Source: Cenococcum geophilum
Taxonomy: Eukaryota
Direction of reading: 5' to 3'
DNA: 64,000 bases
Assembly: GCA_050273025.1 (NCBI GenBank)
Contig: CP158635.1
Span: 3,410,001 to 3,474,000 of the forward strand
The position numbers and the translations under genes are program-made. Within the stretch, counting starts at the first letter, position 1; every line of letters begins with the position of its first letter. The notes beneath the pieces were generated by a model that worked only from the letters and a program-made list of their open reading frames with translations, was not told the DNA's origin and searched no databases. Positions 5,913 through 57,745 of the stretch are shown piece after piece.

Positions 5913-8900
5913 TGTTACGGACGCTTTAAGTACAATATTACGACTACTTGGAGAGGAGTCGGAAGAAGCTAGTTGGTTAATATAAGCACGGTCTAGGATG
6001 GAACCCATAGAACTATGTGACGAGGAATGGTAAGCAGAGTCATGTGGTATGATCTATATAATCTATATAATCTATAAGATCTGTTATAGAGCGAACAGAG
6101 TAGACAGAGTAGATAGAGTAATAACTTTCTTAGAAGTACGGTTGTGTATTTAAGGACCCTTAATCCCTACCTAGATAGTTCCTTCCTTGTAGTAATTCTT
6201 AGAATATAATTAGAGTTAATCTGTTAGGCAACCACTCCACTAGTTATTATTACGTTGTTAACTTTTGTACTTACATTTCCTATACACCTAGCCTAATAAC
6301 GAGCCCACCGTAGTTCTTGCTATAAGGTTCCGTTATATAATCACTATCTAGTTATAGTATTAATATAAGAAGTTAAATAACATACTACTAAAAGCAGCCA
6401 CTATAATACCATCGATGGCAGCAACTACTTTAGGGATAGGAGGTGATACTAGTATAGCGGATACTAACTTACAGCAACCTATAACGGTCGGATAGCTATA
6501 GGAAATAGTTAACTAGTTAACAGCTAATAATATAGTATTAGAAGAAAGACTTAACGGGATAGGAGCAGTAAAGATTAAGCTACTATTAATTGAGAGATTT
6601 ACAGGAGAGAGGTTAAAGCTTAAAGGATTCCTTATATAGATGCACTTTAAGGTCTTATAGGAGGGAGTAAAGTTACCTATACCCGTGGATCGGATAGCCT
6701 ATATAGGACTATTCTTATTAGGAAAAGCACTTAAGTGGTTTAAACCTTACCTTATAAAGATATAGGTAAACGGAATAACAACCACTAACTAAAACGTGCG
6801 ATTTATATTCTTAAGTTAGGAAGAATTCGCAGAGCAACTCACGCAGATATTTAGAGACCTAGAAGAAATAACTATAGCGGAAAGAAAACTCTAGAACCTC
6901 GTGCAACGAACTTTAGTAATTAAGTATATAATATAGTTCCAGACACTAGCAATATAAGTAAAGTAGAATAATAGGGCGCTTATAGTATAGTATAAACAGG
7001 GACTTAAGGCTAAAGTCTAGGACGTAATTATCTTAATAGAAGATACGGACACCCTAAGGGATCTAATAGATTAGGCGATTAAGATTAACAATTAGATCTA
7101 CTAAAGGGAATAGGTTAAGAGAGGCTAGGATAGAGTTCTATAGTTATATAAGGTGTAGAGTACGTAATAATAAAAGCTAAGTTAGAAAATATGGTATGGC
7201 GCAGAGCTAATGGACCTAAGTGGTACTAAAGAAGCCTATAAGAGATGGAGCAAACTATAAAAACCTAGAGGATAAGGATTAAGTAATTAAAAGTCTAAGG
7301 AGCAGAGGCCAAATTAGGGATCTTAATAGTAGAAGACATTTAGGCGGACTCTATAACAAGAGAAATAGTTTAAAGAAGGAGCTTATATAAATTGCGGAAA
7401 ATAGGGTTATTACGTTAGAGACTGTAGAAGTAGGTAGAGTTACTATATAGTAAAAGGTATAAGACTAGTAGACGATATATACATATAAAGGGATAATAAT
7501 ATACTGCGAGGAATAAAAGAATGTTTAATTAAAAGTTTTGCGTTTTATTATAATAACGTATACCGAATTCATAAGGACGCTAAGTACGGCGTAAGCTACT
7601 GGCTATAAGAGCCAGCACCTGTAGGATGTAGAAGAACTAACAAACTAGTTCGCAAATTGGACATTAAGGACAATAAATTCAACCTAGGCGAAATATTCCG
7701 TGACGATAAGGTAATAAGGGCCGCTTACTGGGAGTAAGTAGACCTTAGAGATATTATACTAGAGGTAGAGGATAATTTCACTATAGAATAGGGAACATTA
7801 GTAGGGATCGAAACCCCACTAGATATAATGTCTATCGCTTTACGAGATGTAAGAGAAGTAGGACAGCAAACCACTTCGGCACTTAATAAAGGTAAAAGGC
7901 TAAAGGCTTAAGATTCTTAAGATAAGATAAGAGATAACTAAGATTCTTAAGACGAGATAAGGTAAGCTTAAGGACCTATAACGGATAATAACCAATGGAG
8001 TAGAGCAGTAGCTTAGTTTAAAACTATATAAATGAGCTTAGAATAGAAGTTCCTATAGGCATAAGATTCTTAAGACAAGATGAGTGAGATTTAAAACTCT
8101 TAAGATGAGATAAGAACACTAAGTAAGCCTAGTTAGACTAAGGTAGGAGCTAAGCTTAAGTTAGAAGCAAGCTTAGGATTAAAGAATCTAAGAGGTTAAG
8201 AATTTAGAGTATAAATTAGGACACCCACAGACAAGAGGCAAGGAGCTTCTTTATAAATTAGAGAATCTGCGATATAAATAGCGATTAGACTGGGAGACAG
8301 ATATATAGACCTAGAAGACTTACTAAGGGAATATAGTGTTTAGCCTAAAGATTGAAAAGTTAATACCAAGATTAAGAAGTATAAAGACTTTAAGGATCTA
8401 CTTATAAGACGTAATATAAAAGAAACTATAGAGGAGTTTAGGGCAAGAATTACCTTATAGTAAGAGCAGAAACTAGATAAAAGATCTAGCATATTAGGAC
8501 ATATAAAGGACAGAGCACTAGTATAAAGAATCACTAATAGGCTGAGAGTAGGCACACTAAGAGCTAAGTAGCTTATTAAACTGGAAGATAAAGAGGATCT
8601 AGGGATTCTAACTAGGTTTGAGGAATGATATATAAAGGGTTGTCACAATGCAGTAATAAGAAAATACTTCCTTACGGATAAACTGTATATACTCTAGCAG
8701 CTGTACTAAAAGTGGTATAGGTAAAGGCACAATAATAAGTGGGAAGATTTCTATATATAGTTGGATGAAAAAGTTATTTAGGACTACCTAATTATAGAGA
8801 AGGCCATAACATATATTAAAGGAGCCTTAATTATAACGTTAAAGGATCTAGAGGAACGTTTAGAGGACTAAAGAAGTAAGAGATATATCTTAGTACCTGC

Positions 8901-11900
8901 AAATAAAGTTATAATGTTTAGATTAGTATAATAAAGGTTTAAACTTAAGGATGAAGACAAGCTAAGAGTTAACCTAAAGCACCTAGCATATTACACGTTA
9001 TTATAGATTACGTGCGTAGACGATATATACGAAATACATAAGAATCTAAAGGAAAAGAATCGGAAATACCCTATAAGGATATACTAGATAATGGATAAGC
9101 AATAGTACAGGAATGCTAAATATATATATAGATGGCATCTAGCAGAGGTCTAAGAGGAAGGGAGTTTAGTACTTTAACTAGGAAGATTCCTTATAGAAGA
9201 ATGCTTAGACGGACAATAGTAGTAGAAATGCCTAGAAAACACGTGTCTATGGTATATTAAAGATAAAAAGTGAACTAGGCATTAGCTAAAGAGCGAGCTA
9301 AGTATACTAGGATTAAGCAGCTAATAGTTAGGAAAAGTAGAGGCCTATAGGACTAAAGGGAGCTAGTAGTAGAGCCTTAGACCCTTAAAGGAATTTAAGG
9401 ATAACACCTAAATTTATGGATTAATTGGTAAGATTAGCAGTTTAAAGCGCTAATAGATAGTAAAGCAACGCGAAACTATATCTTATTAGTAGTAGTTAAG
9501 AGAATAGGGCTACCTTATAGATAAAAGGAGCAATTTTACCTATTAGTTACAATTTTAGGAGATCTAATAACCTATAGAGGAGGGATTATTAATCTTAAAA
9601 CAGGACCTATTTAGATAACTATTAAAGGGAGATAAATTAAGATGTCTTTTAATATCCTACTATTAGGACGGGATAAGGCAGTATTAGGCATGCCTTAGTT
9701 ATAGGAATATAATTTAAGAATTAATTAGATTATAGGTTAAGTTAATATTAGAAATACTTAACGCCGCAAGATATAATAATAAGCTAAGTTGGTATAGTAC
9801 TAAGTAGGAGTAACCTACGAAGAAATAGAAAAAGGACTAAGTTATATACTAAAGAGATACTATAAGTACGGCAAGAAACTATAGTCACTAGAAAGTGAAA
9901 AGCTGTTAAAGTATATAGTATAGGACTATAAGATAGAGTTGGAACTAGAAACAAGTCTAAAGTTTTTTCTAATTTATAAGCTTATTAAAGAAGAAGGTAG
10001 AGCGTTAAAAGAGTTTATCTAGGAAAATCTATAAAAGGGATATATTAGACTATCGTAGTTATCAGCAGGTTATCCAGTACTATTCGTACTAAAGAAAAAT
10101 GGTAAACTAAGGCTGTGTATTAACTATAGACAGTTAAATAGCATTACTAGGAAGGATAGGTATCCTTTACCCTTAATTAGCGAAATCTAAGATAGGATAG
10201 GCAATGCGTAAATCTTTATAAAGATAGATCTAAGATAGGCGTACTATTAGATTAGGATTAAGGAAGGCAATAAATGGAAGGCAGCCTTTAGGTTAAAGGA
10301 AGGACTATATAAACTATTAGTTATACAATTTAGGCTTATAAACGCACTAGTAACGTTCTAGAAGCGTATTAATAACGTATTAGGGGAATACTTGGATGAA
10401 TTTATTATGGTATATTTTGATAATATTATTATCTATTTAATGACTAAGGAAGAATATGGGGAACACGTTAAATAGGTCTTAAAGAGACTATAAGAAGAAC
10501 AGATGCCAGTAGTAATTAAAAAATGCGAGTTCTTTACTAGGAAGACCGATTTTATTAGATTTATTATTAAATTAGGCTAACTTAGTATAGATCTAAAAAA
10601 GATTAAGGCTATAGTAAATTAGTAGGAACTAGAGAACATTATATAGTTAAGATTGTTTCTAGGGTTTTGCAATTACTATAGAAGGTTTATAGCGCAGTAG
10701 TTAAAGGATATTAAGCTATTTACGTAGTTAATAAAGAAAGAAGAACTATAGGTATAGGGAGAGGAGTAAAGAGAACTCTTTAAAAAAGTTAAAGAGTTAT
10801 TTACCTAGGAGCCAGTTCTTAAGATCTATTAACTAGGACTAGAGACGGTTATAGAAATAGATACATTAAACTATATACTAGGGGCATGCTTTATATAAAG
10901 GCATTAAGATAGATAGCACCTAGTGGTATACTATAGTTGGAAGATAATACTACCGGAGTTAAACTATAACATCTATAACAAGGAGTTATTAGGTATAGTT
11001 ATAGTATTAAAGGAATAGAGAGTATTCTTGTAAGGTATAGAGAAACTATTTATAGTTAAGACGGATTATAAAAACCTAATAGGATTCCTAATAACGAAGA
11101 AACTTAACTAAAGATAGGTTAGATGGGTAGAGATGCTTACGGAATACTATTTTAAAATTTAGTATACTAAAGGTACAGATAATACGCGGGCAGATACTCT
11201 AAGCCGTAAAGCTAAACTATAAAATGAGGAAAAGCCATTAGGGGCTTTATTGCGAAAAGATATAGACGGATTAATTAGGTACAATTATCCGAAAATTGTA
11301 GCAACTTAAGAAGATAATAAACTAGAGAAAGTCTATAAGACACCAGAAAGCTTTTAAGCATAAAGAATTCTAGAAGCATAGCTAGAAGATTTATAGACGG
11401 ATATATATAAAAATTGAGAAGTAAAGTATATCCTAAGAAGTATAGTAGAGCAGTTTATAAAGGACTTCTATAAGGGACTAACCTAAGGACACAATAGAGC
11501 TATAGGCTTAGTGTTAAGACTCTAGGAGGAGTATATTATTAATAGAATCTAAAGGATAGCTAAAAGGGTTATAAAGGAATGTCTAGATTGCTAAAGGAAT
11601 AAACTAACGAGGTATAAGCTATATAGAGGGCTACAACCTATTAAAATACTAGAGAGACTATAGGAGGTTATATTATGGGACTTTATTATTAAGTTGCTAA
11701 AATTAAGAGATCCTATTACCGGACAAGATTATAATGCGATCTTAGTGATAGTAAATAAGCTTACGAAGTGGGGATACTTTATAGCATATATAGAAGAAAT
11801 CTTAGCGAAAGATGTCGCTAGAATTTACGTTAAAGAAGTGTTTATAAGATATAGAGCACTAAGCAAGATTATATTAGATAGAGATTTAAGATTCGTAACA

Positions 11901-13863
11901 GTATTCTGGGAAGTGTTCTTAGCGGAGTAAGGAGTTTAAGTAGCAACTTCCACCGTATATTATTTATAGACAGACGGTTAAACGGAAAGATTAAATTAGA
12001 CGCTAGAGCAGTACCTAAGGCATTATGTTAATTATGTATAGAATAATTAGGTATTACTGTTACTAGTTATATAGTTTGCATATAATATAACACCTTAAAA
12101 AGGAATAGGCATATTACTATTTAAGGCAAATTACGGATATAAGCCGAAAACATCGTTATTACTATAGTAAGCGAAGAAAACGAGTAATACAGCTAAAGAG
12201 AGAATGAAGATATTAATAAATCTTTATATAGATCTTACGGAATTAGCAAAGAAAGTATAAGAGAAAATAAAAAAGTACTATAATGCTAAGAGATCTAAGG
12301 GACCAGATCTTAAGGAGGGAGATAAAGTATAGCTACTATACAAAAATTTCAAGAGTTGACGACTAAGTAAGAAGTTAGACTATATTAGACTAGGACCTTT
12401 CAAAATTATATAAAGGATTTTACCGGTTATGTTTAAGTTAAACCTACTAGCTAAAATAAAGATTTACCCTATATAGTATATTGTAATGCTAGAGCTAGTA
12501 TATAGGAATGTTAAGCCACCGGTTTATAAAGCAGATATGTATAGAGGATAAGAAGAAGACAAATGGTAAGTATTGAAGATTATTAATTATAAGGATATTA
12601 ACGACAAAATATGGTACAAGGTTAAGTAGATAGGCTATACTAAGACTACCTAGAAGCTACTAAAGAATTTAAAGAACGCTATAGGAAAGGTACAGGAGTA
12701 TTAGAAGAGATTAGGTTAGGCAGTATTAATAAAGAAGGATTGCTAAAGAATGAGTTACCTAAGGGGGACCTAAGAAAAGCAGTTGCTGAACTACTCGGAT
12801 CTATTTCCTTCTCTATTAGAAGAGAATCCGTTCTTTTATTACCTAGTTCCTACAGACCTTACTCTATAAGTTTCTACTCCTTAGAGCAAACCTTCTTATA
12901 AACGCGTTAAAGACGCTAAACTTGTATAAAAGCAGATTGCTAAGCCTTAAGGGCATAAGCAGATTCTTTAGATCGACGATAAGCTTCCGCCAGCGCTGCG
13001 GCAAGATTACCCTTAAGTTTTTCTGCCTTAGATTAAATATAAAACCCTAAGATAAATTAATTAGGGAACTAGACGACTATTAAGAGTAATAAGTCGCGTA
13101 TATTTAATATTAGAGATAGAGCGAATATTATAGGATAACTAAATATTCGCTTTAGTGCACTCTAAATAAGAGGAAGGTTGCTAGGACAAAGGACTCGCCA
13201 ATGTAATATAAACTAGTCCCTCTTTTACACAATAAGAATATAGAAAAGGTATTATCTCGCTAAGAGATAATATTATAGTAATAGTACGAGACCGACGGGC
13301 TATAAAGGAAGAAGAAGGTACTTTAGGCATTATAAGTAATAATATTAACTAAATTAATTAGATGGATATTATACCTCTAGTAAACAACCTAGAGATACTA
13401 GGTATCTTTAAGGACAAAGATAGAGAGGAGGGAGATAGTATTACGGACGCTTTAAGTATAATGTTATAACTACTTAGAGAGGAGTTAGAAGAAGCTAGTT
13501 AGTTAATATAAGCACGGTCTAGGATGGAACCCGTAGAACTATATGACGAGGAATAGTAAGTAGAGTCACGTAGTATAATCTGTATAATCTATATAATCTA
13601 TAAGATCTATTATAGAGCGAATAGAGTAGACAGAGCAGATAGAGCAATAACTTTCTTAGGAGTACGGTTGTGTATTTAAGGACCCTTAGTCCCTACCTAG
13701 ATAGTTCCTTCCTTATAGTGATTCTTAGAATATAATTAGAGTTAATTTATTAGGCAACTACTCCACCAGTTGTTATTACGTTGTTGACTTTTGTACTTGT
13801 ATTTCCTATATACCTAGCCCAATAACAAGCCCACCGTAGTTCTTGCTACAAGGTTCCGTTATA
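5913..13863 (+). mobile_element. Ty3/Gypsy chromovirus LTR retrotransposon, family A copy 1 (full-length, RIP-inactivated)
   Basis: 425-bp LTRs 5913-6337 and 13439-13863; TSD CCAAT (5908-5912 / 13864-13868); PPT AGAGAGGAGGGAGATAG before the 3' LTR. gag from ~6400, PR (ALIDSGA ~9447), RT (~10070-10600), RNase H, IN (ORF 11694-11930), chromodomain (W..YKVKW.GY..TTWEP, ~12555-12700). Confidence 0.96.
12690..13330 (-). pseudogene. Antisense accessory ORF of Gypsy family A: Zn2Cys6-like N-terminus plus predicted helical/coiled-coil C-terminus (RIP-damaged)
   Basis: ATG at 13330(-) MPKVPSSSFIARRSR..; RIP-reverted C-x2-C-x6-C-x13-C-x2-C-x8-C; homologue at 48764-49400(+); 3' end approximate. Confidence 0.6.
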
Positions 13864-15610: not shown

Positions 15611-17350
15611 CAAGCTCGGACCCCCGGAACTCGGTTACCCCTAGAACTTGATTACCCCACCAAAATTAATTGCAACACTTTAGAAGCTATCTACACCCAA
15701 CCAAATTAAATTGACTATTTACCCCTATATGCTATTTAATATATTGACTTCGCTCTTTCTAGCTAACTCTATTTAAGGCTTTAATTTTAGCTCCTTTGCC
15801 CTTATTTTAGTCCTTTTCTCCTCTACCTCCTCTATAGCTTCCTTAATTCTATCTTTATATTTAAAGTCTATATTTAGATCTACAGGTACTTACCTATAAA
15901 TTTTTTGGCTTTTAAGGTCTTTAAGTTATAATTGCAGGATATATATTTAAAGGTCTATATATATAGCCTTTATAATAAGCTGCTAAAGTTATTAACTTAC
16001 TTTTTATAAAAGTAACTAAATCTTTAATTTAGTGCATATCTACTATAAAGGCCTTAATCTATATAATATATATTATAGGGCATCTTTAGGGTAACTATAA
16101 TGTTAACCTAATTATTATTAGCCTGTTTAAAGCTTTATTTTTAACCTATAAAAAATTTAAGCCATTATATGGATTTTATAGATAATTACTAAAGATATAC
16201 TACCTAAATTTAATTATTTTTGCTATAAGACTTTGCCCTTAGGTCTTGCAGTAATACTTAGTAAAGTAGTACTTCTTAATTAAAGCTATATTATTAAGAA
16301 ATATAGGCTTTATAATCTACTTCTAATATTTTAATTTAATAAAGGAGAAATATAATAGATTTAAAGGTTACTATATTAAATAAAGTAGTAAAAAAATAAG
16401 TTATATATTAATTAATTAATATTTTAATAAAAACTTAATTATATAATAGCTTATATAGCTATTAAGTTAAAAAAAAGGCTTTATTACTAAATAATTCGGT
16501 TTTAAGTTAAAAATAATAATAATATAATCGGTTATTTCATTTTTTTTTCTTAAGCCTATATATATTTAATAAGGCATTTAGGCTTAGTATAACTACATTA
16601 ATAATAAATAATTAATTAATTAACTAGGGGCAAATATTACCCTTATAATAGATATATATTTATATCTATTTAGTAACTATATAAAAGTCTCCTTTTTATA
16701 GGGACCTCTTATAGTTATTAAGTTTATATATATATATATATAATATTACTCTAAATTTATCTATATTCTAGGTATTTTTGGCCTATATATTAACCCTCCT
16801 TTCTACCCCTTTTATAAAGATTTTAAAACGTTTAAATTTGCTTTAATTATACCCTATTAGTCTATCTAGTTTCTATTAAGTATATAATTTAATATTTAAT
16901 ATTAAAATTTTGGTAAAAATAGCTAATTACCTATATTATACTAAAGGGCTCAGTTTTGCCATTTTAACTAAATATTTGAGCTACTATTTTGTAACAATTA
17001 TAAATATAAAGGAGTAAATCTTTATAGGTCCTGTTTAAGTACCCAATTAATAAGCAAGACCTCCTATACAGGAGTCAATTACAGCTTGTGTTGGTGTATA
17101 AATTGGTTTAATAGCTTGCTATTTAATTAATCGCTTAAAATCGACAAAAGGACACCATATACAAGCACAGCTTTTCGCGCAGACATATGAACACCAGATT
17201 CGGAATCTACAATAGCCATTTGTAAGTTCTGCTTATTTTGGTCCATATTGATCGACTCGTTGTGGAGAAAATAGGTTGATAAATCGGTGAGTTGATTTTG
17301 GTGTGGTGACCGAGTTCAGGAGGCGACTGAGTTCCGGGGGCCCGAGCTTA
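15611..17350 (-). mobile_element. Fot1/pogo-like (DDE_1) DNA transposon, RIP-degraded
   Basis: ~60-bp TIRs: CAAGCTCGGACCCCCGGAACTCGG..CACCAAAAT vs revcomp TAAGCTCGGGCCCCCGGAACTCAG..CACCAAAAT; 1.74 kb; minus-strand remnants LLINWVL (~17037-17058) and a YLPL.. segment (~16620). TSD not resolved, so the family call is tentative. Confidence 0.7.
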
Positions 17351-19117
17351 ATTATAGTTTTTCTTTAATCTTCTCTTATAATAATAAAGGCTTTTAGCCT
17401 ATATAACTTTTACCTATACGTCTATCTAAACTAAAGGCAAGAATATGGCGCATAATTCAAGGGAGAACAGAGTTAAACTTAAATAAATCGTTGACCAAAA
17501 GGTTACCTGTTGCGATCGCGTATTTGCGCCAAGCCATATATGCGCGCACGTTCAGGAGTACTGTATTCTTTTCCGGGGGCATAAATTTCTTTATTTGGAT
17601 CATTAGTAGGTGTAGAATATCTTATTTGGCTATGCATTGTATGTGGTTTTAAAAAAGGAGTGTATTGTTTTGATTTTGGCGAGGCAACGACTTTTTCCAC
17701 CGGGCCTCGGCCCGATTAAAGGCCCTGATTACATTCGAAAAGTAATCGTCTAGGGTGCCGCCCCGCCCCTTCGTACGATGCGCGGAGCCGAACTACGCTA
17801 CTGTAGAAGGTATCCACCAATCAGCAAATTGGTGTGTGCAATATACGCAGGCCAACAACACCGAGGACCCGATTGTTGGCCACACAAAAACATACGAAAA
17901 ACTCTGGGGCACCCTCGCCAAGGTTCAGATGAGATGTCGAATTTTCGAATAAACCACCAAAGAAGTTTTTAGTAATGATGTTTCTATTACCCACCCTCTC
18001 CCATAACCGTTGCCGTCGAAGAGTTTCTGGACACAGCCGGTTCGGAGTTATGCATCGAGCTAGTGAGCGTCCTTGAAGGGGACCTAGAGACTCTTCCAAG
18101 GTGAATATTGCCCGGCAATCATTGAATAAGCTACCATTTCGTCCCCTCTGCTAAGGCAAATCGAAGCACATCCTAGACCGAACTGTACCCACCTCAAGCC
18201 AGACGGCCAAGAGAGACGACCCGCCCTTCAGACAACGTTGCCTAAAAGCCACCGCTACCCGTCAGAGTCCGCAAAAGAATGTATATAGAGGTCCGTGTAT
18301 CATCATCTTCTGGTGGATCGGGGCTCGACGCCCGGATCGAAAAGTCGGGATGCACGAAAACCGGAGTGATGGACATGTGGACGCCATTCCGTTGAGACAC
18401 GGAAGGTATGCTCTGATATGAAACTGAAGTTGAAGCTAAATTTAGACCGATGCTGACATGGGTTTTAGATTTATAAGGACTTCGATAGTATAGGTCGTGA
18501 GAAGATCCCCTGACCACTTAGGGCAATGACCAGAAAGGAAAATGAAGTATAACCATGGCAAAACCTACCACGGGCGGTTGAAGAGATAAATCAAACATTC
18601 GGGCGGAGTGGGATTTATTTGAACACTTTAACACAAGAGTAAACGGGGAAAAAGAGCGAAGCACACGAATTCTTCAGTCTGACCATTGTGGAAATAGTTC
18701 TATTGCGAAAAGCATTGGACTGGAGAGAGTTGGAGACCTTTATAAGGTAGGAAAGAGATGTCCTCTTCTTAGTGATGCCCTGAAGAAGGCTAATGCACAA
18801 TAAATTTGGTTGTATAACGAAAGAAAATTAGGATTTAGGGTTTGGCTAGATATAACAGGTACAGGAATGTAAATAGAAACCTGTCTAATGGGATCTGACA
18901 TGGAGAAGTTGAATTTAGCAAAGAGTATTTATCAAAATTCTATTCTTGGAATATTTTGCTTTTCCTATAGATTCAAGGCCTCCAGTTGAATAGTCATACG
19001 TTGGTAAGAACAAGACCACCTCTTTTGCGCAGAAAGGAGGTCCGTTTCATATCTTCGGGTTCTCTTTCTCATTCCAGGTTGAACTCCCCATGGGTATCTC
19101 GCCATACATGCTGGAAC

Positions 19118-22100
19118 TTACCATTGGATTGGCTTTTTGTCCTGCTAGAACAAACCACTACGATCGTTGAGATCTTCTAATGCAAGCGTAACCGGTGTCT
19201 AGGTTCCTTGATCTGGTGTTTTTGATCCACCACCTGGTCACATCTGTCTTTACATATCCCGGACAGCAGGAATTAATTGGAACCTTACTACCTTTTTCCT
19301 TCTCAGCTGTCCCAATAGCTTTTGTCATGCCAACAACTCCTGCTTTGGAGACAGCATAACCAGCACTGGGCCAGCCCTGCTTTTTTTTTCCCCGCCGCAT
19401 CGACGGCGGACTGGAATCGTTCCACCGACTTTGTGATATCCAGGACGGTCTTAAAGGCAAGGAACTGGTCTCGTATCGTGTCTGAATATTTATTAAGCTT
19501 CCCACTCATACTCGCGAAATTGATGACGCGGCCTTTGTTCTTCATCAGTGGGAGAAAATGCTCAGTCGCTTCGAGGGTTCGTAGTAATTGCAACGAAGAG
19601 TTATTTTTACAACATTGGAGTCTATCAAGTGCAAGGGGATTAGCAGCTGCCTAGGTATTTCTCAGATTGACCAAAGTCTAAGGGTATGAAAGGCGATCGC
19701 TCTCATCGAAGCCTTGAATAGCGATGCCAGCGTTGTTGATGTCAAAATCGATCCCCTCCTCATGCGACCTCTTCAGATACTCGGCGAAGTCCTTGATGCT
19801 CCTCGTATCAGCAATGTCTAGCTCATGGACAGAGTTGCTGATAAGCAATTCAGATTATTCGGATTGCTTGCTTGATTGTATTATACAATCAATCTTTAAT
19901 TCAATCTGGAGGGTTTAATTTGGGCAATCAATCTATTAAGGAAGGCTTAGATTAATTGATTAATTGTATATTTTATATATAAATTATATAAGATCTTGGT
20001 AATAGGCTTTTGGTCGGAGGTTTGAGTGTATAGGCGCTAAGCCTGATATAGCAGTTGCTAGGCCTAATTGAATTATTTTTCTGGGCCGAAATTGTATACT
20101 AGGGTCCTCGAATTTGCACTATTCCTAATTTAAACCTTAACACTAGCGTTAAATAATTATTATTTGATACTACTATAATGGCAGAGGAACTGTTATAGGC
20201 TAATATTAACGCGCTAAATGCAGGAAATAGGATTAACGCTGACCTTACCCTCTCCGAAGCTGTTGCTCCCACTGAAACCTTTATTAAGATTAACAGCGAC
20301 TCTAAAGATAACGGGATTAATTGATATAATAGTATTAACTAGAAACGACTACCTAACCTTATAAAGCCTTATTATAGCCTACTATAGACGCCTAGCTAGA
20401 TATATAAGTATAGATATTAGTTATAAAGTAGGGTTAACAATAAGCAAATTATCTTTATTTGTAAGTACTGCTATATTTATAAAATTATTGACTGCGGAGG
20501 CTAAGGCCGGTATAATATTATATAAGCAACTAGTGCTGCTACTGCCCATCTTAGGCAGAATAAGAAGGGCTATGGAGTTAATAAGTACGGTAAGATTATA
20601 CTAGCTATAGAGGCTGGGCAGAGTACTCTTTTAGAGTAAGTTATAAGGAGTGGCTACTATATCTTTTAAGTAGTTACTAACGCTTTAATTGGTGGCTTTA
20701 ATATAGAAGCTTTTAAATAGTTGGCTGTTAATTGGATTATAGAGAATAATTACCCTTTACGCGAATTTAAGACGCCTGCCTTCCGTAAGATGTTATAACT
20801 TACGAATCCTGAGGCTGAGCGGGTTCTATGGAAGAACTATTAAGCCGTTATAGATTTCGTTACAATAGAGTTTAAAGCCTATATTCCATCCGTAAAGGAG
20901 TTCCTCTCTACTATATAGTTACAAATCCACGTATCTTTTAATGGCTGGTTAATACTAAATAGTAGATACGCTCTTACGGGTATATAGGTTTATTACCTTA
21001 ACTATAAAGGCAAGATTCGCGACTATATAATAGCCCTACTAGCCCAACTTGGCCATTACTTTAGAGAGAATTATATGGAGGTTATTAGAAGCGTTCTTAA
21101 TATATTTAATATTATAAAAGAGCGGCTAGGCTATTTTGTTATGGATAATAAATCTAATAATAATACCGTAGTAGAAGGCTTGGCTATTAAGTTTAACTTT
21201 ATTACGGCTTACTATTACGGCCAGTACGCCTATTATATACTTAATCTTATAGCCTAGTAAATTATGTGGTTAAAGGATAAGGACTTATTTAAGAATAATA
21301 AGAATATTCCTGTAAGTAGCCTTAGCCTATTCTTTTACTGCTACTAATTTAGGCTAGGAAGAAGAGAAGTTTCTTATAGAGTGGCGAAAGGAAGGTGCTC
21401 TTGGAGCCCTCTATAATCTTATTATTTTTATTAATATAGCTTAATAGATTAAGCTTTTTAAGTCCTTCTAAATTACACAAAATATTCCTCCTAATTTAAA
21501 CTTTAAGGTTAAGTAACTAGTTAAGCCCGTTAAGACGCGTTAGAATAGTTACTTTAACGCCTTTAAGAGAGCTATAGAACTATAGCCTGCCCTTAATGTA
21601 TATTAAACCTTTAAGATTAATAAGTTTAAGAAGAAGAAGGTAGCGTTTTAATCCTTTATAAGAAGCCGAGGTTAAGAGCTACCGGAAATAAAGGCACGCC
21701 TCTATATTAAAGTTGGCGGAATTACTATATATAATTAGCAAGTCGTAAATAACTACCTTAATATTCTTCGCCCTTTTTATAAGGCTATAAGTATGCTTAA
21801 GGGTAAAGGGAAGGTAGGCTTAAATAGTGCTATTTGGGAGGTTATTTCTACATTTAATTGGCTACTTATAGTTCTTAAAGAATAGAAGGATTGAGTTGCT
21901 AAAGCTATAGAGGAGGACTATCCCGATTAGGAGGCTATAGAAGATTATATTAAGATTAACATTAACGCGGCCTGGTTAAAGTTAAATAAGTATTTTAAAA
22001 AGCTTAACAAGACGCCTATCTACTACGCGGTAGTAATTCTACATCCTTATACTAAGCTCTTCTACGAGAACGCTTAAAAGGATAGGCTAAATTGGCTTAA

Positions 22101-23461
22101 AACGAACGACGCTAATTTTTAAGCTCTGTAGGTAAAATATAAAGCTCTTTTAAATAAGGCTTTAGGCGAAGCTTTAGATAAGCCTACGTTATTAGCTGTT
22201 AAGCCGCCATAAAGAGGCCACGTCTTTATATAGCCCGTGACTTATACGTTAAAGCTAATACTAGTATAGCAGAGGGCCGAGCTAGCGACGATAATGAATA
22301 TAAGACTTAAAAGAAGATTAAGCCACTTAATAAAGACTACCCTCTAGCGTAGGATCCTATTAAGTATTGGTGGTAGCTTTAAACTGAGTATCTACGACTT
22401 AGCCGCATGGCTTTTAATATACTAACTATTCTAGCGGTAAGCACTGACTGCGAGCGAGGATTTAGTGAGTGTGGCGATTTATTAGAAAAGCGTTGATCTA
22501 GGTTACTGCCTGCAATAATTGCTGCTCTTTCATGCAATTGATCTTGGAAGAAGATAGGCTTTAAGAAGGCTGTAGCTGTTCCTACTATACCTGGAGGCTT
22601 AATATTACGCCAAGATCCGAATATATAAGCTCTATAGGCTACTACTAATATATAAGCTAGCGCATAGGTAACTATAGAAGCCGCTTTATAGGCTACTTGC
22701 GCCTTATGAGCTCGTACTATATTATAAGCTCGTGCTTTATCGCGAGCTGCATCGCAGGCTTCCTCTTATAGCTTTTAAGCTGTATTATAAAACTCCTTAT
22801 AAGCCTTATTGCGAGGATTATCACGAATTATACCGGTAACACTATAATCTTCCGGGTAAAACGGACGGTTAGGAGGACGGTTAGCATTACGTTGAAGGAT
22901 ATAATGGATAAACAGTGAAGGAGTGAAGGATTTTGGGCGAATTCGAGGCTATTGGAAGGCAAATTTTAACGCTGCGGCGAAGCGCTGCCAAAAATTTGAT
23001 AAGTCTATATATTAATTAATCAATCTTTAATTAAGCCTCTAAAAAAGCTAACCAATTAATCCTTAATTAAGTCGTGAGTATTGATTTATATAATTAATCA
23101 ATTTCAAGACCTTAAGATTGATTGCTTGCTTATTAGCAACTCTGCTCATAGAACCTGATCCCGGCCAATCCACCATGATGGACAAGGGCCTTGGCCTTCT
23201 GGAGCTGAACATCTTTTTCTAGGTTTTGCAATGCTGCTTCGCCCCTGCCTCTGTCGCGAGCGGTAAGGTATATCAACGGACAGCCGTCATTGGGTGGTGA
23301 CTTTGGGTACTGAAGAGCGAGATTCCGCACTGTGAGAGATTAGAGATTAGAGATGTTAGGGAGAATGCGATGAATCTCATGGCGAGTGGACAAGAGGTAC
23401 CTATGGCCAAGCCAATGCGTTTATTTGCCCCGGCAACAACGCCGACTCTGGAATAGGACAT
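19118..23461 (-). pseudogene. Carbonyl reductase-like short-chain dehydrogenase/reductase (SDR), disrupted
   Basis: MSYSRVGVVAGANKRIGLAI (Rossmann motif), IYLTARDRGRG, INNAGI, GRVINFAS, YAVSK (YxxxK), CCPGYVKTD. Split by hAT 19830-23144; frameshifts (poly-T at ~19381, ~19235) and two TAG stops before the native TAA at 19118-19120. Confidence 0.9.
19830..23144 (+). mobile_element. hAT-superfamily DNA transposon (Restless-like termini), RIP-inactivated
   Basis: TIR CAGAGTTGCTGATAAGCAA / TTGCTTATTAGCAACTCTG; 8-bp TSD CTCATGGA (19822-19829) / CTCATAGA (23145-23152); BED-like FICKYC (~20455), KTR.NS (~21532), hATC motif YWW..EY.RLSRMAF..L.I.A.S.DCERGFS (~22365-22466). Confidence 0.95.
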
Positions 23462-23639
23462 GTCGTTGGAGAAAGCTGGGATGGGAGGAAGCGGCGGGTG
23501 CGCAAGGGAACATGATTTCAGCGCGTGGTGGTGGAGCATTTATTAGGGAAGGGTAATGAAGTCATAAAATCTATGACCGTGGAGCGGCCATGCTGCGCGC
23601 CTGCCACACCCTGCCCATCTCAATGTGCAATGTACTGTA

Positions 23640-23772
23640 CACCCTCTCGTCAACTCCGGTGGTTAACGTGTTTTATTTAACTTTCCCTTAAACAGCAAAA
23701 ATACCAAAACTTCCCCTACAAAAAGGCCGTGCAGACGTGGCTGCGCTAACCACCGGAATTGATAAGAGGGTG
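23640..23772. mobile_element. MITE, Tc1/mariner-type (133 bp)
   Basis: 29-bp TIR CACCCTCTCGTCAACTCCGGTGGTTAACG vs CACCCTCTTATCAATTCCGGTGGTTAGCG; TA on both flanks. Confidence 0.9.
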
Positions 23773-24625
23773 TACACCACCTTGGCGCATCCGGTTGAAA
23801 GCGCGTGTTGATCTTGGTGATCAAACGGCAGAGTTTATACCTTTAAAGTAATGCGCACGGCCATTTAAACATATTTTTACCTTTTTTTTAAGTATAATCT
23901 ACGCATTTTGATTAGCGTGATCACACGCGCTTTCAACCAGATGCGCCAGGGTGGTGTAAGCTTTTTGTTACTGTAATGAAGCTCGGACCCATCTCACAGT
24001 GCAGGCCTGGGACCTGCAGCACAGCACACCTCCCAGGCACGCGGCGGGGTAGCCCCACCTTGAGGTACACACTTCGGACCCGCTGCTGCATACGGTCGAG
24101 AATGCCATTCCTAAGGCCACCGCAAGTCTTAGCCCCGGCGCAATGACCTTCGAAAGGCGGTGCTGCCTGTTTCACCAATTCTGCCTGCAGACTTCGTATG
24201 AATCTAAGAACATTCACTCCTGTATTTTTGGCGCAGTCGTTGCTATTTCGTGTTTCTTTCATTTCTCTTCTGCTACTACGATGCCGAGTGCCTTCAACCG
24301 CCCCGATTCGACTCAAGAAACTGTCTCATATCCGGACATCTAAGCATACGTCGTCTTCCGTTTATTCATTTGGTAGAACATCGAGGGGTCCGGGCGGGCA
24401 AAAGCGGGCAGTAATAACGTAAGTTTAGGGTGGAAAAAAAAAGTTAACCTTAATTTATACTTCATCCCCATGACCACATTCACTGCGAATATTCCTTGTA
24501 AATGGTAGCTGACTTAAATCCAGCCCCACTGCATATTCTGCCTACCATCCACTTCCACCCTGCTTTGACTGGTGACATCCTCTTTACGCCTTCTTTCCAG
24601 TAGCTTTCGATATTCTTCCGCCAAG

Positions 24626-26100
24626 ATGACAACCTGTGTGATCTGCGGCGATGATGAGAAGGAGAATGCTCCATTACGACAAACAGCTTGTAGAGACCAC
24701 TATATGTGTGATTCCTGTCTCGAGCAGACATTTTCTCTTGCCTTGCGCGATGAGTCGCATTACCCCCCTCGATGCTGCGGCGATGAGACCGCCATACTTT
24801 TGGTGGATGATTACATGGAATACCTGCCTGGTAGTTTGGTTTGGGATTATCAGATAAAGGAAATGGAATACAGCACCCATAACAAGTTAGTACATGCACT
24901 GTACCTCGGCCATTGACGAGCATATTAAGAGACGATGATTGCTGATCCAAATGCTCTATAGGTTCCGCATCTACTGCGGCAATCCCTCATGCGCCAGCTT
25001 CATCCACCCAAACAACTACCAAAGTGGCCCGCCGATCACGGCTCCCTGTGACTCCTGCGTCTCCTTGACATGTGTGAGCTGCAAGGCGCTCATTGACTCC
25101 GATGCCGCCGCACATGAATGCATAGTACCAGAAGCAGATATTAAATTCGAGCTTGTCGTCCGTGAGAAGAACTACCAACGCTGCTTTAATTGCGGAGCCA
25201 CCATCGAGCTTTCCGATGCTTGTAACCATATCAGGTACGAAGGCTTTCCATATTTCTGTAGACGCCACCTAATTTAGAGGCATGAGAGGGAGGAATTCGT
25301 CCTGACGGCCTGCTGACTCATGAAACAGCTGTGACTGCGGCACCGAATTCTGTTACATCTGCGGCAGAGAATGGGAAGGTCCCCATGGGTGTCCGTATTA
25401 CTGTCAGCCGGTCTATGACAAGGACGGGTATAACCAAGATGGGTTCCATCGCGAGACGGGGCTAAATCGCGAAGGGAACGGTCGGTTCGACGAGGACGGT
25501 TTCGATGATGAAGGATTCGACAGGGATGGATTCGATCAGGACGGTCGGAATGAAGAAGGTTACGATCGGCAGGGGTTTGGTGAAGATGGGTATGACAGGC
25601 AAGGGTATGATGCTGAGCGCCTTGATAGGGAAGGGATGCCAAGAATGAACGATGACGATAGGGAGATGGCGAGGATTCTGCAACAAATTCAGGATGCTGA
25701 GACTGGGTGGTCACCACCAACAGATGACGAAGGAAGTGAAGAGGATGGAGAAGATGATGAGGAGGATGACGAAGACGATGAAGAAGAAGACGACGAGAGA
25801 GAGGACCGGGAGGAGGATCGGGAAGACGGCGGAGAAGGAGATGACGACAAAGAGCAAGGAAGTAGTAGAGTTGAAGTGGAGCAGGGCAACGAAGGGAATC
25901 AAAGGGAAGGTGATGGTCGAACTACCACGATCGAAAGGATTGATGATACAAAAGCCGGGGTTGATGTTAACATTGTGCGAAACGAATCCATCGTCGAAGA
26001 TGAGAGCCTAAGCTACAACCAACATGACCACATCACTGCTACGGAAGATTCTAGCATTCTACCTAAGGATAGAGATCAGGATGCAATGGAAATCGACTAA
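24626..26100 (+). CDS. RBR (RING-IBR-RING, ariadne-like) E3 ubiquitin ligase with DxDG[YF] repeats and acidic tail; exons 24626-24885, 24962-25234, 25329-26100 (434 aa)
   Basis: RING1 CVIC..C.DHYMCDSC..YPPRCC; IBR RIYCGNPSCASFI..C..C...TCVSCK..HEC; RING2 QRCFNCGATIELSDACNHISCDCGTEFCYICGREW; GT-AG introns join the exons in frame (1305 nt). Confidence 0.92.
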
Positions 26101-39315: not shown

Positions 39316-42300
39316 GATACCCCCTAAGAGTAACAAAAGGAGCTCTTGCTGCACCCGGCCCAAAAAGACTAAAACTAACCAAAAAAACCCTGCAAAACAC
39401 CCAGAGAATCCCCCTAAGATGCATGCATCGCAGGGAAGGCATACGTTAAACGACGGTAGTTCGCACTCGCGCGCGACCGCCAGAACTACGCCTAATAATA
39501 GCCCTCTATAACAAAGACGGGCAAATGCCACACTATAAAGCGGAAATACCTTTATTAAGAAGGCATCTAATAAAATATAAAGCCTATTAGACGCGTTTAG
39601 TACCCAGAATTGCGGGGAAGTAACCATTAGCTATAACGATCTAACGCAGCTAGCAGAATGGCTCCGCCAGTCTAGCGAACCTTAGGCGCCCCTTTAGTAA
39701 ACCCTTAATTAAATCCTCTAATGGCTAAGTAAAATTAAAAATAAATAAAACCCCCCCTTACTGGCGAACCGCACTTAGGCCGCCGTAGCTGCGCTTCCAT
39801 AGCATAGGGAACTTACCCCCCTTAAAATAATAACTAGGTATATAATTATAATACGATTAAATATAGAAAAAGCAGAGGGGCTTAGGGAATAATTAGAAAT
39901 AGAAATCCTTATAGAAATCCGCAAAGAGGTTTATAACGCTGTTATAGTCTAACACCTTAGGAGCGGAGACATTAGAGTCACCCTAAAGAACCAATAGGTA
40001 AAGGAACGAGCCGTAAGGGTAGGGGATAGGCTAGGAGAACGTATTGGTATAAAAGTACTCCGCGAGAATGTAACGTGGCCCGCCTCCACGTCGCCATACG
40101 GCCAAAAAGACTAAGAGTGCTTGCGAACTTGTCGCAAGCGCGGCGGGACCTAATATATATACTCTTACAATTGCCCTCTCCTCTACGCGCTCGTCCTCAA
40201 GCGCTCGCAGGGATTCCTCTATACGCCCGTTCGCGCCACAGGGATTAAACGCCAAGAGTATCACCATATTAGTTAGTCCCTAGTAACATAAGCGATTAAA
40301 ATCTTTACCGACGCCTTATCGCACGGATATGCGTTAAACTGTACTAGAGCGAAGTAACTAATAGGGATTAAACCCACAATACCTGGCCCTAGTAAGTTCG
40401 CAAGCACAATTGTAACGTGGCCCGCCTCCACGTCGCCATACAGCCAAAAAGACTAAGAGTGCTTACGAACTTGTCGCAAGCGCGGCGGGACCTAATATAT
40501 ATACTCTTACAGAGAATTACCCAGTCAAAGTCCTAGCGGTCCCCATAAGCCTTAGGGTAGAAAAGGGACGCTAGGCGGATAATATAGCAATTATATAGGA
40601 GATAGTAAGATAAACGGAACGCCTTATATTAGGACTTAAGATCACCCGAATCTAATAGCTTTAATAGGAAAATGTAAATTAAGTAAATAACGAGAATAAT
40701 AAGAGGATATAAGGGTCGCTAAAGACCCGCTAGGGAGACGCTAAACGAACACATGGCTCCCTTATCGTTAGCATATATACACCAGGAATGCAAAAACTCC
40801 TTATCTAAAAAGGAATAATTATAAACGGCCTTATATACAACATAAGGCTCTACAACTACAGACTATGCCTAAAACGATGCTATCGCTACGTATAATGGGG
40901 ACATACCTAATCCACATACGCAGCACAGGTGTGCTGCGGCTACTGTGTAGGCCCCTACAATATAAGACACTACTTAAATTAAGACTAAATAAAATACGTA
41001 AACTGCCACCAAAGCATATATAAGGCGTAGGAGAGAGAAGACTGCATTAAATACAGGAGATAGAAGGTAAGGGCTTAACAGCTACGGGAATAACTATACG
41101 CGAGGTTATATAAATAAAAACAACAGGCGATAAGCTAGGGGAGCGCAGGTGCCTTTCTATCGTTTCCTACCTTTAACACTGGGGGGCTAGGCCAGCCATC
41201 CCAAGCCTTAACGGGCCAGAAGCAACGCCGCGTAATATCACTAGACCGTATAGGGATATAAGGATTACAGGGGATACAAGGGAGAGGACGCCCTATAGGA
41301 AGACCCTTATAGACAGCTATAGTAAGCTTAAAACTAGGATAATTAAGAATTAGACTTAACGCGGTAAATATAACATTCGTAGCTAACTCTTAAAGGGCGT
41401 ATAGCTAACTAGTAAGAATAGGGGAAGAACCGGAGATAATAACAGATTTAGATATAAAAGCGCTAGTAGAAATATAAGACACGGGAATAGAAAGCTCTAT
41501 ACAAAATAAGTAGTAACTAGGGTGTAGACATAAGAGATAGAAGTTCTAAATATCCTAGAGAAAGTAGAAATAGAAGAAGTGAGGAATAATAGAGAGGCGA
41601 AGGACCCTTACTAGGGGTCCGCCACCTATTTATTATACAGTATAACTATAGCAACACAAACCACCGTCTTATAAGGCCCCTACTAGACAGCCTAGACCCA
41701 GAGAAATACTATATCCTTGCTATATAAGAGCCATACTATAACACCTACACACAATCGACATACTGCCCCTAAAGATTCTAGCTCCTATATAAACCAAAAG
41801 CAGCCACACGCGTATGCTTTATAATTAGTAAGACTATCAGCCTATCCTTATAGTCATAGCAGGCAGTTAATCTAGATATTATAGTTATAACAATCTAGAC
41901 ATATAGAGGACCGGTATAAATTATTAATATATATAACCCTAGGGTTAAAGGGGTCCTATAAACAGAGAATATTATATTAGTAATAAGCTTACTCAAAACC
42001 AAAGGCATAAAGTCTATCCTATTAGGAGACATAAACCTCCACCACCCGCGGTAAGGGGGTATTTATATCGCTGCTAAACGACAGGCAGAGTGCCTACTAA
42101 AAGCTATAGACACCTGGGGCCTTAAGCTAGCCACCCCCCCTAGAGCAATTATATAGCAATAAGGATCCGCCAAAAGTACAATTAACCTTATATTTATAGA
42201 CGAAGGCCTATACTAGAGACTTAAAAGGTGCAACCCTAAAGAAAAATGGGCACTTACTTTAGACTATATCCCCATCCAGATACAGCTAGATTTGGATATT

Positions 42301-45300
42301 AAGGCGTAACTAAATAGCAAAAGATATGCAATAAGGATGCTTAAGGTAGACAGCTTCCTTAATACAGTTAAACAACAACTCTAAGACCTAGAAGAAATCT
42401 ACCCGATACTAAACAAGCGAGGCTTATTAGCTACCCCTAAGGAAATCGACTAAAGACTAGAAAGGATCTAGGCAGCGATTAAAAACGGGTTAGAAGAGTA
42501 CTGCCCGGTCTTAAAACCGGGCCCCTATACGCAACACGTATAGTCCGCATAATGCGCGGTTTTTATAGCTAGCTAACAATAAGCAAAAAGGAAATACTTA
42601 AGTAGCTACAACCCTAAAAATAAGAGACGATACAAAGACACAAGAAACCAGTTAAAGAATACCCTAAAAAAAGAAGCAAGAAACAACTAGAGACAATTTA
42701 TAAATAAGTATACTTTTAACCTAAGCCTCCCCTATAACAAGGGCCTATAGGCTATAGCAAAATAGGTAAAGAAAAAGGCAGGGCAACTAGCAGAAGACCT
42801 ATACCTACTACCCCTACGAAGAGCAGGGGAATTATAGGCTACTAACAATAATAATAAGAAGGCAAAGATCCTTATAGAAAGGTTCTTCCCCTAACCGGCT
42901 TTAGCAGACCTTAGTAACATCACAGGTAAAACACCAGTAACTCGCCTGCGGGTTAACAGCGACATAACAACAGAGGAAATAGCCAGAACTATTAGCCGCC
43001 TTTTAAATAATATAGTACTAGGACTAAATAGGATTCTAAATAAGGCCCTAAAGACCTATAGACCACTTATAGCACCCTAGCTTACAGATATAGCTAGAGC
43101 ATACTTTACTATAGGCTACTACCCACAACTTAGAAGATCTATAACGATAGTTATCTTATAAAAAGAAGGTAAAGCAGATTACTTAATCCTAGGAAGCTAC
43201 CGCCCTATTGCCTTAGAAAACACCCTAAGCAAGATCTTAGAAAAGGTAATAGCGGACCGTATAGTAGATACGGCTAAGGAACACGCCCTACTACCATAGA
43301 GCTAAATAGGGGCAAGAAAGAACCGCTCAACACTATTAGCACTTACGCTACTCGCTACCACTATCAAATCCGCATAGGCGATACGAAGGGACTTTATAGT
43401 ATTAATGCTTAGCCTAAATATCAGTGGCGCCTATAACAACGTACCCCACAAGCGTCTCCTATATATCCTTAGGGCAAAAGGCTTCCCAGAATAGATTATA
43501 TAATTTATTTAAGGGTTTACAGGTTAGAAAGAAATATTACTAGTTTTTAGCGGATACTAGAGCCCCCCTATTATAGTTATAATAGGAATACCACAAGGAT
43601 CACCCCTCTCGCCTATACTCTTCCTTTTCTTTATAAGCAACCTACTTAACTCCTTTAAAAAAGGGGTAACCTAGGGGATAGGCTTCGTTAATAATATAAA
43701 CCTAATTATATACGGGCTAACAGCCGCAGAGAATTGCAGAATACTAAAGAAAGCTTATAACACCTATATAAAATAGGCAAGACGACATAAAGTCTAATTC
43801 TCACCAGAGAAATACCAGCTAATCTATTTTATAAGAAAACGCAACCAATCTGCAGATCTCTAGTATATAATTCGCATCTAAGGCTTTAGGGGTCAACTAG
43901 TTTAGGGCCTAAGGGTATTAGGAGTATAGGTAGACAGCAAGCTCTAGTAGAGCGCACATACGGCGTAAGCGGCCTATAAGGGCCAAGCATAGTACATCGC
44001 ATTATCTAGGATCGTTAATTCTATATAGGGTCCATGCTTCTAGAGGTCACGCCTACTATATACAGCAGTTGTCTAGCCAACTATAACGTATAGGTCCAGT
44101 ATTTGGGCCATTAGAGAATCTAAGAAAGGCCCCCCTAAGTCGCTCCTTAAACCACTCTAAAAGGTCTAAACAGCCTGCTTCCGGAGTATAATAGGCGCAT
44201 ATAAGCGAACGGCCACAGCACTGCTCGAGAAGGAAGCCAATATTCCCCCCCTACAACTATATATTAAAGCCGCTGTAATATAAAGGGCGCAAAATAAATA
44301 TAACTCTAATGTTATAAAGTATATTAAGACACGCCTAAATAAACTATGGAGGGACCCTAGGGCGCCCTATAGGAGAATAAACTAATAACCCTAAAGTAGG
44401 GAAGATATATTAGAGAAACAAGTAAAGAAAGCAGAAGAAGAATAGTGCTGCTTTAGGGCCTAGGCCTATATAGAGGAGGAAGGGAGACGCACAAGAGGCC
44501 AGTAAAGATAATAGTAAAAGAGAGAAAGAAGCTAAAGCAAAGCACAAAAGAATGCCAGGAAACCATCTACTGTAATATAATACTGGTTGGACTAACGCTA
44601 GAGAGGTATATAGGAGTTAAAGGTATAGAGGCTAACTAAAGCAAGAGGAACCCAAGCCGTAGTATAGTTAACGCTATAGGGGGTAAATACTCTAGGGCTC
44701 CAAGAAGGCCTAATAAAGGCAGAAAATATAATAGCAATACTCTTAAGAATAGGAATAATAGGACTAAAAGACTGGCTCTACTAGGTGGGTGTCCTAGTAG
44801 GTAACCTAAGATGCGAATATGGCTGGCTAAGACAGACACTAAAACACGTAATACTATTATGCCCCTTACGTACTAACTAAGAAGTAATACTCTTAGTAGC
44901 TAGCACAGAGAACTATAATACACTGCTCTTAATATAAAAAGGCCTTAAGGCGGTTACCTAGTGGCTTATTAGCTAAAATATACTAAACTAGTTCTAGGTT
45001 GCTAGGGAAATAGTAATAGAGGGTAGGGGGGGCGAGCAACGGGCGCCCCCTAATAACTCTACAGTAGTAGAGTAAAGTATGCGATACTAGCGCGTCCGTA
45101 GGCTTGTTACGGCAGCAGTAGTTCCTAAGGAGGTTAAAAAGTAAGGTAGTAGGAGCACCACAGGTGACTTATAGGCGCCCCGCAGGCGCCTTATAGGCGA
45201 GTCCTAAAAGGCAGGGAGATAGATTACGGGGTTTTCTCAAATAGAGTTTTCTCCCCACATATATATAAGGAGTAGTCCGCGTGGGCCCAATAGGGATCTA

Positions 45301-57617: not shown

Positions 57618-57745
57618 TGTAAGAGTATATATATTAGGTCCCGCCGCGCTTGCGACAAGTTCGCAAGCGCTGCGGGACCTAATATATATACTCTTACAAT
57701 TTGCTTGTCGCAAGCGCGGCGGGACCTAATATATATACTCTTACA
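57618..57745. mobile_element. Fold-back miniature element made of three TRIM-LTR half copies (128 bp)
   Basis: Both ends are the same LTR terminus (TGTAAGAGTATATATATTAGGTCCCGC...) in inverted orientation; perfect TSD CCTTC (57613-57617 / 57746-57750). Confidence 0.9.

Follow-up and report, generated by a model that had tools for sequence, protein, structure and literature searches.

Extra genes in antisense orientation have been described in LTR retrotransposons of plants and of a single fungal family, and most of their products resemble nothing. The fungal case is brtn of Boty, which the consulted sections of three reports describe as an antisense gene of unknown function between pol and the 3' LTR (PMC7264820, PMC8365987, PMC4227169). 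Boty is a fungal chromodomain-bearing gypsy element, as the element analysed here probably is too, and both have an extra antisense gene between pol and the 3' LTR; however, no cysteine cluster or domain is described for brtn in those sections, and the two genes were compared by description only, the supplementary files of PMC8365987 that were searched having returned no brtn text. The two genes may belong to the same family. In plants, antisense ORFs of Ty3/gypsy elements comprise gene23 of Grande, the ORF of RIRE2, the TRP28 ORFs of Retand and ORF2 of PvRetro13, as given in the consulted parts of PMC7264820 and PMC11963269. According to these parts, they share with the present gene the position, the orientation, the presence in most copies and a proposed nuclear regulatory role, but differ in the plant host, in the non-chromovirus nature of Retand, in TRP28 or SMC-like domains and in having no six-cysteine module.

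On the protein side, the fungal GAL4-type factors (Gal4, Ppr1, Leu3, AlcR, Pho7) show the same C-x2-C-x6-C and C-x2-C-x8-C halves, a helix after the cluster and an acidic tail, whereas the present product has about 200 residues, is borne by an element, has a 13-residue spacer, a Pfam match below the cut-off and Glu-Gly at the DNA-contact sites, and lacks Fungal_trans. HBZ of the human retrovirus HTLV-1 is a helical bZIP regulator encoded by a spliced antisense gene read from the 3' LTR side. The present gene would share this arrangement and a helical regulator as its product, and a sequence relation is not expected. The antisense promoter of HTLV lies in the 3' LTR, according to the consulted part of PMC7264820.

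Fungal Boty and plant elements thus carry antisense genes in this position. The search returned no paper in which such a gene encodes a six-cysteine protein, with subscription papers, Repbase and bioRxiv supplements out of its reach. Because the anatomy of the product is readable and an intact natural relative, P0280, exists, experiments can directly address whether it binds zinc and DNA, where it is localised and whether it acts on the LTR. Should the product regulate its own element, simple fungal retrotransposons would be organised like complex retroviruses, and such an element-borne regulator may help to account for bursts, the hundreds of copies in this 178-Mb genome being an example.

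The host element and the place of the antisense gene

The window is a stretch of 64,000 nucleotides from Cenococcum geophilum, whose genome consists of 178 Mb in 7 contigs. Most repeats in the window showed a composite RIP index above 1, as in RIP-laden fungal DNA. Self-BLAST and RIP indices revealed two copies, 84% alike, of a Ty3/gypsy element of 7.9 kb. When stops were read as X, copy 1 returned Pfam matches to Ty3_capsid, RVT_1 (E 1.5e-18), RNase H, Integrase_H2C2 and SH3_Tf2-1, and the PR-RT-RH-IN order, the LTRs, the TSD and the PPT were all present, as in a Ty3/gypsy chromovirus. The end of pol at 12552-12746, which was picked out by eye from its motif, is presumably chromodomain-like; Pfam gave no chromodomain match in the RIP-laden copy 1, and by eye the motif is kept in related loci. 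The gag frame (6418-9399, plus strand) has about 990 codons, and beyond its zinc knuckle about 650 codons contain short repeats and several Cys/His-type motifs with no Pfam match.

Elsewhere in the window, a second large repeat family (39338-45076 and 58720-63999, about 90% alike) is less AT-shifted; near 40069-40511, 342 bp are either duplicated or deleted within it. Two islands, at 17000-20000 and 23000-26000 (GC 41-52%), show no RIP signature and are probably host genes between repeats. Long imperfect palindromes occur at 57618-57745 and 23773-23958.

From the ATG at 13330, the minus-strand frame of copy 1 reads MPKVPSSSFIARRSRTITIILSLSEII... The preliminary description of this DNA had reported the same antisense frame in both copies of the element, and this was borne out (from 13330 on the minus strand in copy 1 and from 48764 on the plus strand in copy 2); in copy 2 the start codon is ATA and exon 2 is 21 nt longer than in copy 1. 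The start had been placed about 110 bp inside the 3' LTR, which is wrong: the ATG lies 109 bp before the LTR edge at 13439, in the internal region. An accessory gene between pol and the 3' LTR had also been described, and its antisense position stands while its location strictly beyond pol does not, as the gene end at 12679 overlaps the last 68 nt or so of pol. Among 70 related loci with at least 900 nt of flank, pol (chromodomain-like end and integrase) was found on the opposite strand, 336-525 nt off, in 69. The gene fits the aORF-3R class of antisense additional ORFs, which comprises frames that are coding, antisense to gag-pol and located between pol and the 3' LTR, that occur in most copies and that are conserved at the codon level. 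A 24-base degenerate pattern at the exon-1/intron border had 528 matches in the genome.

We conclude with high confidence, on sequence evidence, that the antisense gene is real, element-borne and intron-containing, because of its six TGY/TAY sites, its transversion bias, its fixed place opposite pol and the intact, joined P0280. Both window copies of the gene are dead through RIP. The coordinates of all features are collected in Table 1.

Table 1. Coordinates of the two element copies and of the antisense gene in the window
Feature	Position	Strand	Evidence or remark
Ty3/gypsy copy 1, subfamily A, RIP-mutated	5913-13863	+	TSD CCAAT (5 bp), self-BLAST, Pfam
5' LTR, copy 1	5913-6337	+	self-BLAST, element ends
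pol frame: protease, RT, RNase H, integrase, chromodomain-like end; RIP stops break the frame	9402-12746	+	
Exon 2, copy 1: long helix, conserved basic stretch, acidic/aromatic tail; stop 12681-12679	12679-13046	-	
Intron, 55 nt, phase 1 (donor AT, branch-like CTAAT, acceptor TAG)	13047-13101	-	
Exon 1, copy 1: basic N-terminal arm, second Met site near 13252, six Cys/Tyr sites	13102-13330	-	
Donor-like AG/GT at 13374, possible 5' intron upstream of ATG	13369-13376	-	conserved; P0280 jumps from here to exon 1
Polypurine tract, copy 1	13422-13435	+	
3' LTR, copy 1	13439-13863	+	self-BLAST, element ends
Ty3/gypsy copy 2, subfamily B	48231-56146	-	TSD TTTCT
Antisense gene, copy 2: exon 1 48764-48992, intron 48993-49047, exon 2 49048-49436	48764-49436	+	

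Cysteine sites, RIP decay and selection

The codons of the six cysteine sites start at 13240, 13231, 13210, 13168, 13159 and 13132 with a spacing of 2-6-13-2-8, just as the preliminary description had placed them, and its claim that three sites are Cys in at least one window copy was confirmed for sites 2, 5 and 6: Cys is present at sites 2 and 5 in copy 1 and at sites 5 and 6 in copy 2. For a wider comparison, we used a set of 60 copies that includes the two window copies: for each of these, 40 genomic matches were scored and the best 30 taken. All 360 codons (six sites in 60 copies) were TGY or TAY, with TGY in 17, 26, 6, 5, 50 and 21 of the 60 copies at sites 1 to 6 respectively. At 82 polymorphic TG/TA sites nearby, the mean TG retention was 0.29, and the Tyr states are therefore ordinary RIP decay of cysteine codons. 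The start codon was ATG in 17 and ATA in 43 of the 60 copies.

A Tyr consensus or retained stops had been proposed as an argument against the gene. Both were seen, Tyr being commoner at five of the six sites and some stops occurring in all copies, yet this yardstick is too blunt, because pol itself, taken as a control in 53 copies, has 8 codons out of 493 at which a stop is fixed (97% of copies or more). No open gene or intron-less copy was found among the 60 + 1 + 10 + 17 loci inspected in the genome, and genomic matches that seemed to be in frame carried indels and stops.

Over the 60 copies, the exon-1 frame contained 1.7 stops per copy against 5.4-9.4 in the five other frames. The contrast was weak in exon 2 (6.3 against 6.5-11.2 elsewhere), where two stops are common to at least 97% of the copies. 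Since RIP yields transitions only, selection was evaluated on the transversions between subfamilies A and B. Third positions accounted for 9 of 12 transversions in exon 1 (P=0.004) and for 20 of 37 in exon 2 (P=0.007), and the transversion pN/pS was 0.21 and 0.41 respectively, with values of at least 1.3 in shifted frames. By these figures, the antisense frame is conserved at the codon level.

Divergence between the subfamilies is unevenly distributed. Transversions reached 0.25-0.31 per site in the first half of exon 2 (13030-12900) and fell to about 0.00-0.03 over the 600 nt that follow (12900-12310); there were none in the intron and almost none from 12900 into pol, which gives a mosaic, and the net length difference in exon 2 was 21 nt. 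This patchy pattern points to recombination between elements or to a fast-changing helix. Distances of exon 1 and integrase gave a Spearman coefficient of 0.37 over non-independent pairs of 58 loci, a weak co-inheritance.

Relatives, splicing and protein anatomy

In profile searches, matches comprised 192 clusters at E<=0.001 and, at E<=0.01, 1237 proteins; among the best 150 clusters and the best 120 proteins, nearly all matches were RIP-damaged metagenome fragments. The 2-6-13-2-8 pattern of Cys or Tyr is preserved in 235 of 282 retrieved proteins. At the DNA level, a scan confirmed 185 loci, of which 80 were retained; these all come from three metagenome assemblies, which is a limited breadth. 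Exon 2 measured 113-131 codons, and its tail was in frame in 67 of 70 related loci.

The intact relative P0280, from one JGI contig of 1423 nt, is a stop-free protein of 239 residues with all six Cys, which some other relatives also have. It matched exon 1 of the window up to residue 100 (51%, E 2e-19) and exon 2 from about residue 102 (38% and 36%), and the single Trp between the two matches is the codon given by the phase-1 junction 13101/13047. Its N-terminus matched a further antisense frame across the PPT and then jumped into exon 1 at the 13374 site. P0280 looks like the product of an RNA with two introns removed, and in this twice-spliced form translation would bypass the first ATG and begin at the Met that immediately precedes the first Cys. 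The donor-like site at 13374 may possibly begin a 5' intron. Such an intron, from 13374 to 13321 on the minus strand, would remove the first ATG, and its acceptor in the window family would read AAG.

The intron between the two exons ends with TCTTAG and holds the branch-like word CTAAT. A probable intron with a RIP-altered donor and this end had been suggested earlier, and support for it came from the exact junction, which is joined in P0280. The donor was AT in all 60 copies; GT was found in 1 of the 528 genomic pattern matches, in 2 of 17 other genomic copies and in 25 of 79 related loci. In the genome, GT retention at the donor was below that of most RIP sites, and the donor may be a hot spot. 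The intron of 70 related loci was 55 nt long in 57 cases, 130 nt in 7, 61 nt in 3, 127 nt in 2 and 54 nt in 1, the TAG acceptor being there partly by construction as it was sought by pattern. All recurring lengths (55, 61, 127 and 130) leave a remainder of 1 on division by 3, for which the chance is about 1 in 27, and no consistent open frame through the intron was found. Alternative splice sites at 13126, 13097 and 13070 were ruled out, as they do not produce the P0280 junction. Four RNA runs contained no joint across the 55-nt intron at 80% likeness, with a raw-read depth of only about 1 at this place and small contig shares.

P0280 consists of a basic arm, the six-Cys module, a charged helix of 90 residues with a conserved basic stretch, and an acidic tail (8 D/E and 1 K/R in 49 residues). 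The Ala/Arg/Glu-rich helical segment predicted earlier after the intron agrees with the AlphaFold model of a fragment, P0064, in which a helix at residues 47-109 is confident; the structure prediction gave no usable model of the cysteine part (pLDDT about 50). With this model, Foldseek returned 0 matches and VIA-align only generic long helices (Z 6.5-6.8). Some structure neighbours in the Atlas bear the name Zn(2)-C6, with TM values of 0.34-0.44 that stay below the threshold, and Atlas feature searches gave only ascomycete clusters, all under 0.9. Sequence searches of the PDB returned nothing significant (best E 0.062; Ppr1 at E 4.4) and Rfam gave 0 matches.

As in PF00172, six conserved Cys form C-x2-C-x6-C and C-x2-C-x6-8-C halves. 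The central spacer has 13 residues in nearly all matches and falls outside the C-x5-12-C range quoted in the preliminary description. Zinc clusters with longer central spacers exist, e.g. AlcR. The Pfam comparison with Zn_clus (PF00172) remained below the gathering cut-off of 21 bits, with scores of 8.1, 9.4, 13.1 and 13.9 bits in four of eight proteins and none in the other four; three of these four weak matches align to the second half of the profile and not to its DNA-recognition half. Zn_clus was matched in 0 of 26 RIP-laden copies and, in another set, in 1 of 36 sequences at E 0.073.

Lys17 and Lys18 of Gal4 contact DNA and K17E cuts binding about 20-fold, according to the consulted part of PMC3384613; the part consulted of PMC6265462 reports Asn at the Lys18 site of Pho7 and the order cluster, helix and acidic tail in Gal4-type factors. 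At the corresponding sites, the window family has Glu in 51 of 60 and Gly in 59 of 60 copies, which makes a reading of CGG doubtful for this family. P0280 has Lys-Lys, and the retrieved relatives have Lys in 219 of 235 at the Lys17 site and Lys/Arg in 104 and Gly in 121 of 235 at the Lys18 site; some of these Lys may be mutation products of Glu. The description of the gene as Zn2Cys6-like holds for the six conserved Cys; GAL4-type membership is not supported, in view of the Pfam scores of 8-14 bits against 21, the poor model and the Glu-Gly pair. The protein may work like a zinc-cluster regulator, and we do not file it in PF00172.

A putative regulator and the competing explanations

We propose, with a probability of about 0.5, that the product acts in the nucleus and regulates transcription of the element that encodes it; an adaptor to chromatin or against silencing is ranked below this reading, followed by a particle cofactor. 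In this view, a lineage of fungal Ty3/gypsy elements has a conserved third gene on the strand opposite to pol, with a transcript of its own that is likely spliced. For an intron to persist in an LTR element, it must escape splicing from the genomic RNA and so lie on the opposite strand, and for this reason the transcript is placed on that strand, where it would start from the 3' LTR side. In the protein, the six Cys would hold two zinc ions in a Gal4-like cluster, the helix would pair two chains, the basic stretch would lead to nuclear import and the acidic tail would be of the activation type. The product might then bind the element's DNA, probably without the Gal4-type reading of CGG in the window family. 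This regulator is suggested by the cluster-helix-acidic-tail order, which is that of Gal4-type factors, and by weak but repeated Zn_clus matches, whereas the sub-cut-off Pfam scores, the Glu-Gly pair at the Lys17/Lys18 sites, the exon-2 stops, the donor GT in only 1 of 528 matches and the breadth of three assemblies argue against it. In a more elaborate and rather doubtful form, the product might be a chromovirus-borne mini transcription factor made from a spliced antisense RNA, with a non-canonical binuclear zinc cluster, an exchangeable dimerisation helix and an acidic activation tail, i.e., a counterpart of Tat or HBZ that would switch on or de-silence the LTR of its element and whose gene might lie back to back with a second, small nef-like ORF over the PPT into U3.

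The zinc module might instead bind host proteins or chromatin and shield the element from heterochromatin or RNAi, an alternative to which we give a clearly lower, though not negligible, chance. An adaptor of this kind would account for the loss of the Gal4 base-contact residues in the window family while the six Cys were kept, and for the fast divergence and in-frame length changes in the first half of exon 2, as seen in conflict-driven or swapped modules. However, pN/pS there does not reach 1 (0.41), recombination between elements would explain the abrupt borders of the divergent block just as well, and RIP struck every copy examined in the genome, so that no lasting protection against RIP was provided.

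Somewhat less probable again is a cofactor of the particle life cycle, acting in RNA export or packaging, in nuclear entry of the integration complex or as an integrase partner. Analogy with the accessory proteins of retroviruses has led to such roles being suggested for antisense ORFs of plants (PMC7264820, consulted in part), and the basic helical stretch is the best-kept part of exon 2; nevertheless, the order of cluster, helix and acidic tail seems closer to transcription factors than to structural proteins, and searches of Pfam and the PDB showed no likeness to known particle proteins.

That no antisense protein exists, the frame arising as a side effect of a sense frame that overlaps it or of RNA signals and the antisense RNA being what matters, is very improbable: a sense frame that shares third positions with exon 1 does lack a fixed stop and is open across the PPT into U3, and the intron lengths of 55, 61, 127 and 130 all leave a remainder of 1 modulo 3, but the exon-1 antisense frame has fewer stops (1.7 vs 5.4) and a lower pN/pS (0.31 vs 0.51), selection in exon 2 tracks the antisense frame, with the variable positions falling on second positions of the sense frame, and P0280 is open, joined and provided with six Cys.

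The sense frame over the PPT was also considered in its own right. It spans 13332-13559 on the plus strand, extends about 40 codons into U3 and is acidic and protein-like. Its terminal stop is shared by 120 of 122 sequences and no fixed stop precedes it; ahead of this terminal stop, insertions and deletions add up to multiples of three, and beyond it they are free. Its pN/pS was 0.39 against 0.41 in the antisense frame sharing its third positions and 0.66 in a control region, and its third-position bias was not significant (P=0.087). This frame may represent a small ORF of the nef kind or may reflect cis signals, of which it would be a by-product. In the LTR itself, counted without a shuffle control, a CGG-N12/13-CCG word of varying spacing was observed near 13515-13535 in 15 of 30, 9 of 29 and 12 of 61 LTRs.
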